IMG/VR virus record: IMGVR_UViG_3300012041_000023
Span: 6,159 to 70,158 of that record
Length of the DNA stretch: 64,000 nucleotides
Strand: one strand, 5' to 3'
Origin: a virus
Lineage: Duplodnaviria; Caudoviricetes
This document shows positions 4,307 to 44,301 of the stretch, one piece after another (position 1 is the first letter of the stretch; every line of letters begins with the position of its first letter). The position numbers and the translations under genes were made by a program. The notes beneath the pieces are model-generated. The model made no database searches. It was given only the letters and a program-made list of their open reading frames with translations, and was not told the DNA's origin.

Positions 4307-4672
4307 TCACGCCGGCAACAGCAGAAACTCGACCTGACACACCGCGGTGTCCGCGATCCAGAAAGGGGCCACGCTGCTTGCGTGGATGCGGAAGCAGCAA
4401 ACCTCGCCCGCGTTCAATCGAATGAAGTCCGTTCCGCCGGTCGCCTGGCGGATACTGACGAAGTTCGTGGGGTCGCGGTTGATAGCGCAAAAGTATCCGC
4501 CCGTGGAGACCTCCCCGATGTCGATGGCTTCCTCACTCGTCCCCACGCTCTGCCGCTGCCAGGCGAACTGGTTCCCCGAGACGTCCACCTGCAGGTTGTC
4601 TGCCCCGAGTTCAACGACCGTTGAACCCTTGACGAACCGCACCGAGGCGAAGATGGTCGCTTCATCGGCCAT
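4307..4672 (-). CDS. beta-rich hypothetical phage structural protein
   Basis: 121-aa ORF with globular composition, tightly packed in the head operon. Confidence 0.6.
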   Translation of the reverse strand: MADEATIFASVRFVKGSTVVELGADNLQVDVSGNQFAWQRQSVGTSEEAIDIGEVSTGGYFCAINRDPTNFVSIRQATGGTDFIRLNAGEVCCFRIHASSVAPFWIADTAVCQVEFLLLPA

Positions 4673-5692
4673 CTAGCGCCGCCTCCTCGCGGTCGGCTGC
4701 TGCTGCGCCGGCGACGTCGTCCGCGGCAGCGGTCCCGTTGGGGGCACCTGCTTCTGGAGCCGGAGCAAGTCTTCCATCGCTCGCTGGTTGGCGCCGAGCG
4801 GTCCGCCCGTGCCGCCCTGCCCCGGACGCGCGCCCCCGCGTGGCTGGCGGAAGGTGGTGCCGGGCGCCCCGTAGAGGTCCGGGCGCTGCATCTGCATCTG
4901 CAGCCGCTGCTGCTTGAGGTTCTCTTCGAGGATCTGGCGCTGCAGCCGCTGCTGCTTGAGCTGATCCTCCTGGGTGGGCTTGCCCATATAGCCGCCGAGA
5001 TACATCTCTTCGAGCGTGATCGGCGTGCCGTCGTCCCATTTGGCGTTCCTTTGCTCCTCCGGGGTGAACTCCCGCGGACGCAGGGCCGTGCCGCGGAAGA
5101 AGAGATTCGGCGCCTTCGAGCGGAGCTGGAGCATCTGGTCGCGCAGGTTCTGCGACATATACTTTTCCGTGGGACCGTGCCCATACCGGTCGTAGGGATA
5201 GGTGCCGTGAACGTTCGCCCGTCCCCGGTTGCCGGCGTTGAGCAAGTCCGCCTCCTGCCGCGCCCGCTCCAGGTCCGCCGCGGTCGGCGCCCCGCTCGCG
5301 GGCGGCGTCGCACGCCCGTCCGTCGTGGCGGGGGCGTTCGGCTGCCGCGTCTGCGGTGGTGGCACCACCCGCAGCGCGGGCGGTCCGGTCGGCCGCGTGG
5401 GCTGGTTCGGCCGAATCTCTCCCGCGCGTCCCGGTGGCCCAGCGGGGGGCAGCGCCGGCGGCGGTCCCGTGGGTGGGATCATGCGCGGGATGGGGATGCC
5501 CGGCCCCAGATCCCCCTCGCGCAACTGCGGCCGCAACTGCGAGCCCCGCTGCGTGTCCGGGTGCGGCAAGGGCTGGATGCCCCGTCCCACGGGTGCACGC
5601 ACGGGCGGCTTCCCCATCGGCGCCTGCCCCTTCTTCTGCTGCTTCGCCGCTTTGCTCCAGGCGTCTACGCTGGCTACTAGTCGCTCAAGCAT
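4673..5692 (-). CDS. Pro/Gln-rich protein sharing segments with the protease extension
   Basis: TGATG coupling at 5690-5694; shares GTYPY..G.GPT.KY and QPNAPAT..ATPPA motifs with 17..3709. Confidence 0.6.
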   Translation of the reverse strand: MLERLVASVDAWSKAAKQQKKGQAPMGKPPVRAPVGRGIQPLPHPDTQRGSQLRPQLREGDLGPGIPIPRMIPPTGPPPALPPAGPPGRAGEIRPNQPTRPTGPPALRVVPPPQTRQPNAPATTDGRATPPASGAPTAADLERARQEADLLNAGNRGRANVHGTYPYDRYGHGPTEKYMSQNLRDQMLQLRSKAPNLFFRGTALRPREFTPEEQRNAKWDDGTPITLEEMYLGGYMGKPTQEDQLKQQRLQRQILEENLKQQRLQMQMQRPDLYGAPGTTFRQPRGGARPGQGGTGGPLGANQRAMEDLLRLQKQVPPTGPLPRTTSPAQQQPTARRRR

Positions 5693-6072: not shown

Positions 6073-6271
6073 CCCCGTCTCCCTCCCGTGGCGGCTGCAC
6101 CACCGTCAGCACGTCCCGCAGTCCCGGCGTCAGCTTGTATCCGAGCATGGCGAGCGCCTGGATCAGCGGCACCTTCGCGTTCCGCAGTGCCACCAGTGCC
6201 CCCGCCCGTTGATCCTCGGTCACGGTGTGGCACGGGCAGCGACAGTCTTTGACGGTGCAGCAGGTGGCCAT
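6065..6271 (-). CDS. 68-aa Cys-rich protein resembling the portal C-terminal helical segment
   Basis: TGATG coupling at 6269-6273; QRAGALVALRNAKVPLIQALAMLG versus portal QRAGALLAYRNAGIPLLLACEILG. Confidence 0.55.
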   Translation of the reverse strand: MATCCTVKDCRCPCHTVTEDQRAGALVALRNAKVPLIQALAMLGYKLTPGLRDVLTVVQPPREGDGDV

Positions 6272-17876: not shown

Positions 17877-19315
17877 GCTCCAAAGAGGAGCAGCCTCCCA
17901 CTCACCGCCAGCTTTGCGAACGCCCCCGATGCCGCATCAATCGCGTCATCATGGGCACCCGAGGGGAAGAGTCGGAACTCCTCCAGCAGATCCGCGTTCC
18001 AGCGCGCCTTGAGGAGCTTCACGTTCCCCGCCTCGCACTGCGCCGCGAAGGGCTGGGCGCGCACTTCCTTGCTGCCCGTCACCCGCTCGGCGTGGATGCT
18101 GTGTCCCGCGAGCAGCCGGACCAGCACCTCCGCCACTTCCTTGCCCGCGGCGCCGGGATCCTGGGGAACCCAGGTCGTCACCTCGCCCGCGTAGCGTTCC
18201 TTGTCCCGCTGGGCGGTCTCCACCAGGCGGGAGTTGCGTTCCCCGGCCGACCACTGCCCGGCGGTGAAGTCCTCCACGTAGAAGAGGTCGCCCGCCCGCG
18301 CCATCAAGATCGACGCACTCCTATCGCCGCCCGCCTGGGTAGCGGCCAGGTCCCAGTACCTCACCCGCCGCGCGGACCTTGGCACCACATCCACGGTCTC
18401 GATCTTGTCGGTGCGGATCGCGCCACCTTCGAGTGGCTGCGGATCGCCCTGATAGAGCGCCGCAAACGACCGAGCCCCCAGCACCGTGCGGATCCCCGCC
18501 AGCGCCGTCTCATCGAAGCGCGCGGGGCAGAGCGCCTGCCCGGGCGCACGTCCCAGGAGGTCGCCGGGCTCGGCCAGCGCCGGCAGCCGCAGCACCGTCC
18601 AGTTCGGGCCGTCTTCGCTGTCAAGGATGCGGCCGGCGAGGTCCATCTCGTGCCAGCGGGTCATGGTGAGCACGATGGAACCGCCGGGCTCGAGGCGGGT
18701 ATACAGGTCGTCGCGATACCAGTCCCACACCCGCTCCTGGTAGGCCGGGCTGTCGGCTTCCTCGCGGTTCTTGACCGGGTCATCGATCAGGATCAGCTCG
18801 GCGCCCTGGCCGGTCACACCCCCGCCCACCCCCACCGCGCGCACGCCCCCGCCTTCGGTCGTCTCCCAGTCCTCCGCGGCGTTGCGCTCCTTGGAAAGCG
18901 GCAGCCCCACCTGCGTGGCCACCCGCCGCGCCTTACGGCTAAACTTGTTCGCGAGCGTCTGGTTGTAGGCGCCGATGATAACCCGCAGCGCCGGGTCCTG
19001 CTCGAGCCTGTGGATCGGATAGCGGACCGTGCCACACTCCGACTTGCCACTCCGCGGGTGCAGGAACAGCATCAGCCGCTTACACCTACCCCACGTCACC
19101 CGGTCCAGGAGACTCGTCAGGATCTGGAGGTGCAGCCAATCCCAGTCCCAGGTCGGTGAGACACTCTGCAACCAGGGGCGGAACCTGGGCGGCATCCCCC
19201 GGAGAATCTGGTCCAGCTCCGCGGCCGTGTCCGTTCCGAACCAGGAGCTCGGAGACGCCGCGCCAGCGGTCGCTGTCCGTGAGGGGCGCGTGCGCCTTGC
19301 CTCGGTCGCTGCCAT
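17873..19315 (-). CDS. terL: terminase large subunit
   Basis: Walker A HPRSGKS, Walker B LILIDDP, nuclease WDLA and HDDAIDA motifs. The start may be downstream of 19315. Confidence 0.92.
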   Translation of the reverse strand: MAATEARRTRPSRTATAGAASPSSWFGTDTAAELDQILRGMPPRFRPWLQSVSPTWDWDWLHLQILTSLLDRVTWGRCKRLMLFLHPRSGKSECGTVRYPIHRLEQDPALRVIIGAYNQTLANKFSRKARRVATQVGLPLSKERNAAEDWETTEGGGVRAVGVGGGVTGQGAELILIDDPVKNREEADSPAYQERVWDWYRDDLYTRLEPGGSIVLTMTRWHEMDLAGRILDSEDGPNWTVLRLPALAEPGDLLGRAPGQALCPARFDETALAGIRTVLGARSFAALYQGDPQPLEGGAIRTDKIETVDVVPRSARRVRYWDLAATQAGGDRSASILMARAGDLFYVEDFTAGQWSAGERNSRLVETAQRDKERYAGEVTTWVPQDPGAAGKEVAEVLVRLLAGHSIHAERVTGSKEVRAQPFAAQCEAGNVKLLKARWNADLLEEFRLFPSGAHDDAIDAASGAFAKLAVSGRLLLFGA

Positions 19316-19640
19316 CCTTCTCCAGCATCTTCAGAGCGATACTCTTATCCGTGAGAATGCCGAACGCGGTCGCCAGTTGGTGGGGCGGCGCGCCGGCGAG
19401 TGAGCCGGGGATCTTCTCCAGCACCAGCGCCGCCACTTCCTCGATACGGGCCAGCATCAGCGTGCGGCCCTCGTCGCGCATCTCCCCGAGCTTCGCCACC
19501 ACGCCCTCGCCGTTCGCCCAGCGACGCAAGGTGCCCCGGGGAATGCCGATCTCCTTCGCGGTGCGCTCCACGTTATCGGCGTTGGCATCGAGGGCCGCGA
19601 GCGCCGCCGCCCGCTCGGCATCGGTGTAGACTCTGGCCAC
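19086..19640 (-). CDS. terS: terminase small subunit (HTH)
   Basis: N-terminal HTH (NVERTAKEIGIPRGTLRRW) directly upstream of terL and overlapping it. Confidence 0.65.
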   Translation of the reverse strand: MARVYTDAERAAALAALDANADNVERTAKEIGIPRGTLRRWANGEGVVAKLGEMRDEGRTLMLARIEEVAALVLEKIPGSLAGAPPHQLATAFGILTDKSIALKMLEKDGSDRGKAHAPLTDSDRWRGVSELLVRNGHGRGAGPDSPGDAAQVPPLVAECLTDLGLGLAAPPDPDESPGPGDVG

Positions 19641-19643
19641 CGG

Positions 19644-19808
19644 CTACCCCGTGATCGGGCCGCCGAACAATTTTAGGCCGGCGATAAAGAGCAAGATGGC
19701 CAGGATGAGACTCGATCCGCCCCAGCCCCAGCGTGCTTCAGCCGGTCCACGGTAGCCCCACCAGCAGCCCCACAGGATGAACAGCACGTAGAACACCCAC
19801 CACCACAT
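19644..19808 (-). CDS. 54-aa Trp-rich two-TM membrane protein (not in the ORF track)
   Basis: Manual translation: MWWWVFYVLFILWGCWWGYRG...LILAILLFIAGLKLFGGPITG. Confidence 0.5.
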   Translation of the reverse strand: MWWWVFYVLFILWGCWWGYRGPAEARWGWGGSSLILAILLFIAGLKLFGGPITG

Positions 19809-19888
19809 GGCTAGTGGAATGGCACACCGTCCTTTCTCGTCGCGAAGGATACGCAGGCACGAAAGGCGAACTTAAAACCGATGATTAT

Positions 19889-19918
19889 GCCCCGCGAGCG
19901 CGGCAAACGCTCCGGGGC
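19889..19918 (+). promoter_or_regulatory. HNH leader hairpin, copy 2
   Basis: GCCCCG-C-GA-GCG-CGGCAAA-CGC-TC-CGGGGC, upstream of AAGGAGG and ATG 19950. Confidence 0.7.
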
Positions 19919-19949
19919 TTGGCCGAAACCTTTGAAGGAGGTCTCGACG

Positions 19950-20504
19950 ATGTCCCGTTCGCCACGCCCCAGCTTCCCCCCTGTCCAGGTCGGTGACCGG
20001 AGCGGTATCCGCACGGTGGTTGCGATCCCGACAGCCAAAAACTATCAGGGCTTTGTAACTCTCAAATGCGCCTGCGGTGCCCGCGCTAATCTCACGATCC
20101 GCGACTTCTACCGCATTCCTCCGACGCGATGCAAAATCTGCCAGCCGAACCGCCGCACCCACGGCGCCACCGGAACCCCTGAATATACTTGCTGGCAAAG
20201 AATGCTTGCTCGTTGCTATCGGCCTAGCCATCATACCTATCAGTATTACGGCGCGAGGGGCATCACGGTTTGCCCTGAATGGCGCAACAGCTTCGATGCC
20301 TTCCTCCGCGATGTCGGCCCGCGTCCATCGCCGGACCTCTCCATCGACCGGATCGACGTCAACGGCAATTACGAGCCCGGCAACGTTCGGTGGGCGAGCC
20401 GCCTGATTCAATCCCAAAACCGACGCCCCAGAACTCCCAAACCAAAGGATGAGGCATCTCGACCACCTTCCCATCAAACGCAAAAAGGCGCCACCGAGGA
20501 CTGA
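19950..20504 (+). CDS. HNH endonuclease (YGxRGI subtype), antisense to the late operon
   Basis: WQRMLARC...YYGARGITVCPEW...SIDRIDVNGNYEPGNVRWA. Confidence 0.85.
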   Translation: MSRSPRPSFPPVQVGDRSGIRTVVAIPTAKNYQGFVTLKCACGARANLTIRDFYRIPPTRCKICQPNRRTHGATGTPEYTCWQRMLARCYRPSHHTYQYYGARGITVCPEWRNSFDAFLRDVGPRPSPDLSIDRIDVNGNYEPGNVRWASRLIQSQNRRPRTPKPKDEASRPPSHQTQKGATED

Positions 20505-20775
20505 TTCCTCGTGTGGCGCCTTGAGCGCTGGCTAATCAATGCAGACCGGACGGATGCCGGTCATTGTATTTTCGGGCGGACCGCGCCTCCCCACCGAGCG
20601 CGGCCCCGTCCGGTTGGGGAGGGCACAGCGCCGGTCTGGTAGACGGAGAGGCGGCCCCGCCCGAAAGGTTACTGGCCGCGTTTGGGCGGGTGGGGCTTGA
20701 TACCCACTCGGGTTTCACCCCGGCGAGGCGTCGTTAGCGTTCTCCCCGCGTCCTTCCGCGGTGCCGCCCGAAAGG

Positions 20776-20847
20776 AAGGGCCTCCCGGAATCTAACCGAG
20801 TCCCTCGCAGTACGCCCGCGAGATGCTGGACATTACAACAAAGCCCT
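20776..20847 (-). ncRNA. 72-nt tRNA-like cloverleaf with a non-canonical anticodon loop
   Basis: Acceptor AGGGCTT/AGGCCCT, D-stem GTTG/CAGC, stem CTCGC/GCGAG with a 9-nt loop, T-arm CTCGG-TTAGATT-CCGGG; no CCA. Confidence 0.5.
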
Positions 20848-20862
20848 ACGGTCTTTCTTGGC

Positions 20863-20892
20863 ATTTTATCGCAGCGGCCTCTTGCGTGTCAA
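20863..20892 (-). promoter_or_regulatory. sigma70-type promoter for the packaging/head operon
   Basis: TTGACA-18 nt-TAAAAT on the minus strand. Confidence 0.65.
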
Positions 20893-21054
20893 GCAAAGCG
20901 CGAATATCCACCCACACCCGCACCCATTTGCGCCGCACCCGCCACGCCTTCACGCGCAGGAGCTTCGTCGCCGGGTCGTAGTGCCCGACGACGCGCCCGG
21001 TCATCTCATCGTGGACCGGAACGAGCGACGGCGGCTCCTCGGGCGGGGGATTGG

Positions 21055-21348
21055 TCAACGCGCGCGCCCCCACGCTTGGGCTGTCTCGTAGTCGGCTGCA
21101 TCCTTCGCGGGCCGCGAATAGCCCGTCAAGCAGTCCGTGCAGCCGCAGTCCACCGGATCCACCCACTCACTCCCGGACAGGAGATCGGCGCGCTGCGGTG
21201 CCAGGAGCCGCCCGTCGATCTCGTCCGCGACAAAACGATAGGTGAAGGCGTGCGCCTGCGGGCCCGCCTGGTCGGCCCTCGCCCGCAATTCCGCCACGTA
21301 GCCCCGCAATCCCTGCTCCAACTTCGCCAGCCGCTCCGCTGCCGTCAA
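21055..21348 (-). CDS. hypothetical protein
   Basis: 97-aa ORF with a CGCTDC motif. Confidence 0.45.
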   Translation of the reverse strand: MTAAERLAKLEQGLRGYVAELRARADQAGPQAHAFTYRFVADEIDGRLLAPQRADLLSGSEWVDPVDCGCTDCLTGYSRPAKDAADYETAQAWGRAR

Positions 21349-21484
21349 CCCTCGTCCTCCCTCTCCAATCCCATCTCCTCGGCTCCCGGCAGCGCCAGCA
21401 CCTCGCGCGCCACCCTCACGAACTCATCGAACGCCCAGTAGGCCCCGTGGAATATCTGTATCCCCCCGTGCTCATAGTAAGGCG

Positions 21485-21721
21485 TCACCCCTCCACCTCA
21501 AACCGCGCCACGAGCGCGCAGTGCCAGTCCTCCCCGGGAACCTCCCGCACCGGCACGCGGTCGATGGCCACCAGTCCGTTGGCCGCGAACCCCCGCACGG
21601 TGCAGCGCGGGGGTTCGGTCGGCACGACGTGGGTGACGATGCCGGGCAGGGGATGCCCGCCCGGCCCGTAGAGACGCACGAAGTCCCAGACGCGGGGGAC
21701 TTCCACTGTATCGGCGGTCAC
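21485..21721 (-). CDS. hypothetical protein, paralog of 22098..22601
   Basis: D(F/Y)V..(Y/H)GP.G..LPGIV...EDW.C.L.ARFE shared by both. Confidence 0.5.
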   Translation of the reverse strand: MTADTVEVPRVWDFVRLYGPGGHPLPGIVTHVVPTEPPRCTVRGFAANGLVAIDRVPVREVPGEDWHCALVARFEVEG

Positions 21722-33806: not shown

Positions 33807-33835
33807 ATTATAAACAGAACCGCCCGCAACGTCAA
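33807..33835 (-). promoter_or_regulatory. leftward early promoter
   Basis: TTGACG-17 nt-TATAAT on the minus strand. Confidence 0.8.
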
Positions 33836-43732: not shown

Positions 43733-44091
43733 CCGACCACCGCAACGCCCTCCGCATCGAGCTACTCCTGCTCGTGCTTTTCCTGGCCGTCGTGCTCGCC
43801 GTGGCCCTCACGCCGCGCGCCACTCCCGCCCAGGACGACCCCACCACCCCCGTCGTCTCCGCCGCCGCGCGCTATGACGTCGCCGTGGAAACCCTGCGCG
43901 TCCGCACCCGCACGCTCGCCGCCTGCCAGTCCGCGCTGCACATTAGCCTCGTCGAACAAGAGCGCGGGAACCGCATCCGGGCGCTGGCCGGGACGCTCTT
44001 GTTCGCCAAGGGGGAGGAGGACGCCGCGAGGCGCGAGGTGGCGGAAGCGGAGCGGGTGCTGGCTACCGCGCTGCTGGTGGCAGCGCGTTAA
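43729..44091 (+). CDS. N-terminally anchored coiled-coil protein
   Basis: Hydrophobic N-terminal helix followed by a helical region. Confidence 0.5.
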   Translation: MTDHRNALRIELLLLVLFLAVVLAVALTPRATPAQDDPTTPVVSAAARYDVAVETLRVRTRTLAACQSALHISLVEQERGNRIRALAGTLLFAKGEEDAARREVAEAERVLATALLVAAR

Positions 44092-44301
44092 CCCCGTGAC
44101 GGCCGCGCGTGGTCCGAGCCCGTGTGGCCGTCCGTAAACGCCGCACTCTCGCGGCATCCCGTGCAGCCGAAAGGACATCACTCCCACAACAACCTGACTG
44201 ACGCCGGCCCCCGCCACTCGCACGGGAGGCGGGGGGCCGGCACCGATTGCGAGGAGGACTCCCCACCGGCGCCGGCGAACCCCGGAACAGGAGACACCGC
44301 T

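Follow-up and report, generated by a model that had tools for sequence, protein, structure and literature searches.

The 64-kb window analyzed here (the whole stretch of 64,000 nucleotides, whose coordinates are used throughout) represents most of a 70-kb IMG/VR viral contig, positions 6,159 to 70,158 of record IMGVR_UViG_3300012041_000023, with a GC content of ~66%, from an uncultured high-GC phage. Reading down the minus strand, there is a DNA methylase gene, small open reading frames (ORFs), a 70-aa ORF, an interval at 20892–20505 flagged in an initial annotation made from the letters alone, an oppositely oriented HNH endonuclease gene, a gene for a 54-aa protein, a terS-like gene and the terminase large subunit gene terL. 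The flagged interval is probably a self-contained non-coding unit that runs from a promoter to a terminator, and a reduced, recombinant member of a small, modular RNA family specific to one clade of phages. The family is known from four distinct sequences, those of the window and of three related phages (L100, L101 and L102), and because no Rfam model matches the locus we regard it as an undescribed small RNA family. The initial annotation had proposed a phage non-coding RNA or a leader switch at the head of the packaging operon, with an antitermination element, a tRNA decoy against host anticodon nucleases or an RNase P/Z processing handle as candidate roles. The RNA or leader is supported by the conservation of the promoter and terminator, by substitutions that preserve structure and by the absence of coding signal, but the switch is not.

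Promoter, terminator and coding content

Both the promoter named in the initial annotation and the lack of a convincing ORF downstream of it are borne out. The promoter is of the sigma-70 type (Table 1), and transcription is predicted to start at ~20856. When both strands of the window are scanned with a cut-off of at least 10/12 matches to the sigma-70 consensus, only four sites are found, all scoring 11–12 (33990+, 48688+, 33835− and 20892−), and the site at 20892 is alone among them in preceding a long non-coding stretch, each of the other three having a gene within 40–80 nt. (Two of these three are perfect copies of TTGACA-17-TATAAT and one matches at 11/12; the divergent pair at 33835−/33990+ is probably the early control region.) On the minus strand, no further sigma-70-type promoter reaches 10/12 from 33.8 kb to where the structural genes end. 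The promoter is also conserved in the relatives: L101 and L102 have TTGACA-17-TAGAAT, and L100 has TTGACA-17-TACGAT.

The other end of the unit is an intrinsic terminator ~340 nt downstream of the promoter, which a simple terminator scan overlooked, probably because of the mismatch within its stem. It is conserved with compensatory changes in L101 and L102, with which it shares the tail TTTTTGCGTTTG, and the terminator hairpin of L100 has a weaker T-tract. The distance to the genes beyond varies: the terminator lies ~670 nt before the first late gene in the window, and in L100 and L101 the membrane-protein gene follows it after ~60–90 nt. The presence of this terminator and of the convergent HNH gene, both missed in the initial annotation, indicates that the RNA does not simply run on into terS.

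Between these ends there is no coding signal. GC content by codon position is flat over 20500–20860 (0.6–0.72 in all three phases) and strongly periodic in the flanking genes. Two ORFs of 49 and 60 aa were considered as genes and rejected on account of this flat profile and because neither is retained in the relative, whose sequence has a 2-nt indel within the 60-aa ORF. The predicted RNA as a whole folds at z = −5.2.

Structural modules in the related phages

The phages that share this locus belong to a clade with TerL proteins 69–81% identical in a large protein collection. The three relatives compared at the DNA level have TerL proteins 77–81% identical to that of the window, and no cultured phage has one more than 44% identical. 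A search upstream of terS, as suggested in the initial annotation, shows promoter, terminator and position to be kept in all three. Each has a small ORF with a promoter in its 3′ end, a gene-free region of 355–665 nt, a terminator, a membrane-protein gene, terS and terL, and it is the common promoter, terminator, short hairpin and position that place the window, L100, L101 and L102 in one family.

The evidence for selection on structure is strongest in the 3′ half of the unit. First, the long hairpin has a predicted stability of −64.6 kcal/mol (z = −4.3) and is ~94% identical to L102 4462–4560; the six substitutions between the two consist of four at unpaired positions and one compensatory CG-to-AU pair. 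Second, the 3′ block to which it belongs (20667–20475) is identical to that of L102 at 170 of 193 positions (~88%), compared with 80% in the neighboring coding DNA. In a 194-column alignment of this block, in which 60% of columns are paired, 31 columns differ; 27 of these are unpaired and the other four make up two compensatory pairs, with no pair broken by any of them. Third, the short hairpin differs between the window and L102 in its loop only, its closing pair covaries between AU and GC in the four-phage alignment, and its stem and that of the terminator covary across all four phages. It is thus well supported that the 3′ half, comprising the 100-nt hairpin, the short hairpin and the terminator, is under structural selection. 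The structured RNA of ~270 nt described in the initial annotation therefore stands for its 3′ ~190 nt (20667–20475), with the conserved hairpin at z = −4.3, but not for the middle ~107 nt (z = −0.65).

Upstream of this block the modules differ from phage to phage, and the promoter-terminator unit of the relatives holds structured modules other than those of the window. Homology between the window and L102 is confined to the promoter (20895–20852) and the 3′ block, and what lies between, 184 nt in the window and 412 nt in L102, is unrelated. The long hairpin is missing from L100 and L101. L101 and L102 have ~420 nt of 5′ modules in common, and a module of ~110 nt, which we refer to as module B, is common to L100 (4860–4970), L101 (4440–4552) and L102 (4128–4236). 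RNAalifold predicts 31 pairs in module B, ten of them with double compensatory changes among the three sequences; it matches no Rfam family. (By eye, a pseudoknot is possible in module B, between a 5′ GRUUCCC and the hairpin loop GGGGAUC/GGGAACC.) The full RNAs of the relatives fold better in the sense than in the antisense orientation (−320 vs −287 kcal/mol).

Two of the relatives also carry a clear tRNA-like element (L101 4651–4722 and L102 4375–4445). Scored with RF00005, the tRNA model of Rfam, which has a gathering score of 29 bits, they reach 42.5 and 43 bits, respectively. The two elements are identical except in the anticodon arm, where stem pairing is retained by compensatory change and the loops are abnormal (6 nt in L102; A33/C37 in L101). 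The L102 element ends 16 nt before the long hairpin. L100 has a weaker acceptor and T-arm match of 17 bits, with a D-arm that by eye resembles those of L101 and L102. (A possible second cloverleaf lies upstream of the tRNA-like element of L101, at 4561–4632, although with 16.4 bits and E 0.13 on a model built from the clade it is not significant.)

Table 1. Coordinates of the features discussed, in the numbering of the window
Feature	Position	Strand	Basis or remarks
Basic Arg/Trp-rich 70-aa ORF	20846..21058	−	GC3 periodicity; promoter inside its last codons
Sigma-70-type promoter, TTGACA-18-TAAAAT	20863..20892	−	11/12 positions match
tRNA-shaped cloverleaf, 72–74 nt	20774..20847	−	7-bp acceptor, 5-bp T stem, T-loop UUAGAUU, no CCA
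Direct repeat copy 1, 12 nt, CCUUUCGGGCGG in RNA	20764..20775	−	Window-specific
Filler between the two repeats, 95 nt	20669..20763	−	Window-specific
Long irregular hairpin, ~100 nt, 37 pairs	20570..20668	−	5′ arm opens with repeat copy 2
Short hairpin, GACCGG / CCGGUC stem	20544..20562	−	Stem kept in relatives, loop variable
Intrinsic terminator	20482..20520	−	GC-rich hairpin 20520–20487 with one internal mismatch, then U5 20486–20482 (fold)
Convergent HNH endonuclease gene	19881..20504	+	phrog_374, E 6.5e-43
Trp-rich hydrophobic 54-aa protein gene, probably membrane	19644..19808	−	Alignment with relatives, blastn
terS-like HTH gene	19086–19640	−	Pfam HTH_23
Terminase large subunit gene	17873 to called start 19072	−	Terminase_6N/6C; phrog_38, E 9e-95

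The cloverleaf and the repeats

The predicted transcript of the window begins with a tRNA-shaped cloverleaf, which is real as a fold and weakly supported as a tRNA. Taken by themselves, the 72 nt adopt this shape as both their minimum-free-energy and their centroid fold (z = −2.0), with five G:U pairs, and the transcribed strand is the more stable (−29.7 vs −19.4 kcal/mol for the antisense); with a G:U closing pair, the 9-nt anticodon loop is alternatively a loop of 7 nt. The initial annotation had suggested scoring it with ARAGORN. No tRNA gene is called in the window at the default threshold. Only at the 95% threshold is the cloverleaf reported, as tRNA-Thr(CGU) at c[20774,20847], but it is then one of only two calls in 128 kb (both strands), which speaks in its favor. 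(The second, a tRNA-Thr(GGU) of 92 nt at 44042–44133 on the plus strand, may be a chance fold.) The cloverleaf does not present the canonical combination of a 7-nt anticodon loop with U33 and a purine at 37, and elbow nucleotides G18G19 and T54-Psi55-C56; G18G19 are absent, position 33 is G rather than U, and position 56 is A rather than C. It is not detectably homologous to the tRNA-like element of the relatives. It starts ~9 nt past the predicted start site, directly before the sequence leading into the hairpin, and fills the slot that immediately precedes the long hairpin, which in L102 is taken by the tRNA-like element. Mainly because of this position, and of what the relatives carry, we lean somewhat toward a genuine tRNA-derived or tRNA-mimicking element.

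The segment between the cloverleaf and the long hairpin is flanked by the two copies of a 12-nt direct repeat. In an exact-match search CCGCCCGAAAGG has just two occurrences on the plus strand (20657 and 20764) and TTTCGGGCGG a single one (20570), which agrees with the repeats and single partner reported in the initial annotation. It had been suggested that two mutually exclusive helices could form, and a riboswitch-like leader, in which a single partner is contested by both copies of CCUUUCGGGCGG and two long-range helices are so toggled, does account for this arrangement. However, pairing through copy 1 gives a helix less favorable by 6.7 kcal/mol than pairing through copy 2, and copy 1 is missing from L102, the sole relative with the long hairpin, where a single copy opens the hairpin and the hairpin is retained. 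Copy 1 and the 95 nt that follow it are specific to the window, and there is no match to a riboswitch or leader family in Rfam. The switch can thus be given hardly any credence. Since copy 1 is window-specific and its helix carries the 6.7 kcal/mol cost, the repeats resemble the junction of a recombination or insertion event instead. The middle ~107 nt have no local alignment to the relatives and no homolog. We also considered this 107-nt segment as a diverged duplicate of the long hairpin, and rejected this since the alignment score is below those of shuffled sequences.

Several observations weigh against a family of structured RNAs to which the window belongs. First, the structure used in counting the 31 differing columns was predicted from the same two sequences that are compared, and with only four distinct sequences the covariation statistics are thin. 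Second, the middle ~107 nt (20775–20669) fold no better than shuffled sequences (z = −0.65), and are slightly more stable on the antisense strand. Third, RF00005 has no match at E≤10 on the 92 nt from 20765 to 20856, nor on the longer piece 20300–21000, and under a clade model derived from the elements of L101 and L102 the cloverleaf scores 12.7 bits (E ~1), which is noise and below several chance matches. Fourth, in the full transcript the cloverleaf costs +3.9 kcal/mol, has a mean pair probability of 0.20 and is not part of the minimum-free-energy fold; what had initially been annotated thus stands as a fold of the isolated piece and as an ARAGORN call at 95%, but not as an Rfam tRNA or as a favored structure of the whole RNA. 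Fifth, module B is not found in the window by nhmmer with the module profile, and a DNA search of the 70-kb record gives trivial matches only. As this is the best-supported module of the family, the window copy could be partly decayed, and it is the most reduced of the four. Finally, the processing by RNase P and RNase Z and the antitermination considered below are suggestions by analogy with known systems.

A rival explanation is a decaying tRNA island with recombination scars, made up of tRNA pseudogenes and of spacer that folds only through its GC-richness. All four tRNA-like elements do have defective anticodon loops, module content varies among close relatives, the 107-nt segment without structure signal sits between 12-nt direct repeats, and the window cloverleaf lacks the nucleotides of tRNA tertiary contacts. 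Decay, however, would be expected to scatter substitutions, whereas the L101 and L102 elements have changed in the anticodon arm alone and with pairing compensated; likewise, none of the 31 differences in the 3′ block breaks a pair, module B has its ten compensatory pairs, and a consensus promoter and a terminator are retained in all four phages. We consider it unlikely that decay explains the locus.

A modular non-coding RNA is the interpretation that we prefer, and a plausible sequence of events can be outlined. Host RNA polymerase would start at the near-consensus sigma-70 promoter in the last codons of the 70-aa gene, transcribe ~375 nt and stop at the intrinsic terminator; in the relatives, up to five modules lie between the common promoter and terminator, always with a tRNA-derived element among them that has a non-canonical anticodon loop. 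The acceptor/T-arm minihelix of the cloverleaf (7+5 bp) could be recognized by tRNA-processing enzymes, with RNase P cutting on the 5′ side and RNase Z or E on the 3′ side, releasing a small RNA of tRNA-like shape and, from the 3′ part, a stable RNA of ~290 nt that includes the hairpins. The RNA may accumulate as a stable product, with the tRNA-shaped element acting either as an RNase P/Z handle or as a tRNA mimic. The strong terminator would insulate the packaging operon, and late genes, if read from this promoter, would need read-through as at lambda pR′-tR′.

Late genes and the region behind the terminator

The position of the unit suggests that it may also act as a checkpoint of the lambda pR′-tR′ type, or a terminated leader of the late operon, as there is no other sigma-70-type promoter scoring at least 10/12 ahead of the ~20 kb of late genes on the minus strand. 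In its pure form this explanation would hold that the unit is simply a late-operon leader of the lambda pR′-6S-tR′ type, a checkpoint overridden by a phage antiterminator, with the body of the RNA as a passenger. It is favored not only by this sole promoter but also by the short distance from terminator to first late gene in L100 and L101, the lack of any other promoter of at least 10/12 in the 10–13 kb loci of these two phages, and the small Arg-rich protein gene directly upstream; moreover, the late leader of lambdoid Stx phages such as 933W contains tRNA genes downstream of pR′. Against it, there is no Q-, N- or other antiterminator family among the upstream proteins in Pfam or PHROG (and Atlas gives unnamed viral clusters only), although a novel small antiterminator is possible, and no Q-binding or pause element was identified. 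In addition, the structural selection on the modules exceeds what a passive leader needs, and three of the five clade members have antisense cassettes separating the late genes from the terminator, that of L102 with a promoter of its own, which suggests that the terminator is the true boundary of the operon. A pure leader is therefore possible, if doubtful, and it is compatible with a modular non-coding RNA rather than exclusive of it.

The site immediately past the terminator of the RNA is a hot spot for the insertion of such cassettes, and their presence argues that the terminator usually stops transcription. In the window the insertion is the HNH gene, which is not present in the relatives, has a lower GC content than its neighbors and weak codon-position periodicity, and extends with its 3′ end into the terminator hairpin. 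The L102 cassette consists of two small antisense ORFs (4622–5124, minus strand) with the promoter TTGACC-17-TAGAAT, and its last gene also reaches into the terminator hairpin, while a fifth relative (the ENA contig of P0008) has four antisense genes at the corresponding site, including a DUF5131 gene. A HEARO or omega-RNA serving the HNH gene was considered and rejected, as the strand is wrong, the HNH gene is missing in the relatives and there is no Rfam match.

The proximity of terS and terL, with an HNH endonuclease beside, raises the further possibility of a DNA-level packaging signal, in which the inverted repeats upstream of terS would be a pac or cos site or a terS-binding region; in HK97 and other known cos phages, terminase is paired with an HNH protein. 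It is in keeping with a DNA site that the L102 long hairpin is nearly as stable in antisense (−63.1 vs −65.6 kcal/mol). Neither the long hairpin, which L100 and L101 lack, nor the HNH gene is found throughout the clade, however, and the folding is strand-biased, with G:U pairs and the sense-strand preference of both the cloverleaf and the full RNAs of the relatives favoring RNA. A DNA site would also have no use for tRNA-like elements, a promoter or a terminator with a U-tract. On these grounds a packaging signal is very unlikely.

Of the flanking genes, the basic 70-aa ORF has homologs at the matching position in L100, L101 and L102, and a profile search places only four members of its family in a set of 5.8 billion proteins; Pfam, PHROG and Atlas give no lead as to its role. 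In all four phages a gene for a Trp-rich, probably membrane, protein of 54–58 aa directly precedes terS. It matches no family, and it is the first gene past the terminator in relatives free of insertions. A motif, CGCTC..GGGG.ATA.T, is common to the window (19884–19900, minus strand) and L101 (5057–5075), upstream of this small membrane-protein gene. In the window it falls within the 5′ end of the HNH ORF, and it could be a late promoter, a regulatory site or a coincidence. The TerL proteins of P0004 (L100 6001–8280) and P0008 (759 and 789 aa) contain an intein with a LAGLIDADG homing endonuclease, and there is no intein in the TerL of the window.

Distribution and comparison with known phage RNAs

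Searches for further copies of the unit extended well beyond the clade. Comparison by blastn of the region, and of its L102 version, against 50,697 phage records gives nothing. When IMG/VR is scanned for exact or degenerate motifs taken from the T-arm, module B, the terminator tail and the D-arm, there are either no matches or only chance ones, as judged by blastn against the flanks. Scanning GTDB genomes with TerL identifies a single distant prophage in a metagenome-assembled genome of Oligoflexia, and scanning JGI metagenomes with a terS profile identifies two distant loci, all without the RNA; relatives with TerL at ~60% identity (L137–L140, L002–L018) lack the locus and have no tRNAs. Searches with models of the RNA modules covered the loci already retrieved. 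Two further sequences, L145 (Logan SRR6448247) and L146 (ENA ERZ27267681), are 100% identical to the window at 19005–21330 and 20826–21500, respectively, which indicates that the same phage recurs across samples. These two, and L148, which equals L101, add no independent information, leaving the four distinct sequences.

Rfam, also proposed in the initial annotation as a means of identification, gives no family. No model of Rfam 15, including GOLLD, ROOL and HEARO, matches the window at its gathering score, and the relatives match the tRNA model only. The sub-threshold matches at E≤10 (ncS037, S-element, sul1 and MEG3) are far below their gathering scores and were taken as noise. A tmRNA was also considered and rejected, with ARAGORN finding none in the window or in L100–L102, and no match to an Rfam tmRNA model.

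Modules have been swapped in this family while the tRNA shape is kept and the anticodon loop is apparently free to vary, which suggests that selection acts on tRNA shape and not on decoding. We would tentatively suggest, as a possibility and with the odds against it, a new class of modular phage RNAs, each running from promoter to terminator as a cassette ahead of the packaging genes, in which interchangeable domains (the 110-nt domain capable of a pseudoknot, the 100-nt hairpin and others) are mounted on a non-decoding tRNA mimic that recruits the tRNA-processing or tRNA-binding machinery of the host. If so, this class would be a smaller analogue of GOLLD and ROOL that is active late in infection, for example in the control of late transcription or packaging, or in sequestering a host factor directed at tRNA. 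To our knowledge, none of the tRNA-linked structured RNAs of phages (GOLLD, ROOL and the T4 stable RNAs) has an assigned function, and a compact locus with clear boundaries and a fixed place before the packaging genes would be a workable system for studying both the function of such RNAs and any coupling to late-gene control.

The unit has points in common with several known systems. In lambda, a strong promoter, pR′, lies upstream of the late genes and gives the short, terminated 6S RNA ending at tR′, with late expression by read-through. The unit described here similarly has a host-type promoter followed by an intrinsic terminator upstream of late genes. It differs in that its RNA is longer and under structural selection, that Pfam and PHROG reveal no gene of the lambda-type Q antiterminator family upstream, and that several relatives have antisense cassettes behind the terminator. 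Nor does it correspond to the put-type RNA of HK022, in which two stem-loops follow the promoter: only the first ~5 nt of the predicted transcript are still homologous between the window and L102, after which the 5′ modules are completely different. The 7-bp acceptor and 5-bp T stem with a 7-nt loop are those of tRNAs and of mascRNA-type handles, and the tRNA-like element of one relative has a weak match (25 bits) to the mascRNA model, although the window element fails the tRNA model RF00005 and is without G18G19, U33, C56 and CCA. The T4 stable RNAs, species 1 and 2 (rnaC and rnaD), are located in a tRNA cluster and co-transcribed with tRNA-type elements, have no known function and are released by tRNA-processing enzymes. 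They too are small phage RNAs of unassigned function found alongside a tRNA-type element, but in T4 there are decoding tRNAs around them, whereas here the sole tRNA-type element is non-canonical.

The closest parallels are with GOLLD (RF01998) and ROOL (RF03087), large ornate RNAs of phages and prophages that are typically near tRNA islands and whose function is unknown; in GOLLD, tRNAs are sometimes present within the linker, and the 3′ region is conserved and the 5′ region variable (bioRxiv 10.1101/2024.12.08.627333; PMC5737381). The present family is much smaller, at 355–665 nt (375 nt in the window), matches neither model, has tRNA-like elements that seem unable to decode, and occupies a fixed position directly before terS. 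Like GOLLD, nonetheless, it combines a shared 3′ end with variable 5′ modules and an embedded tRNA-like element.

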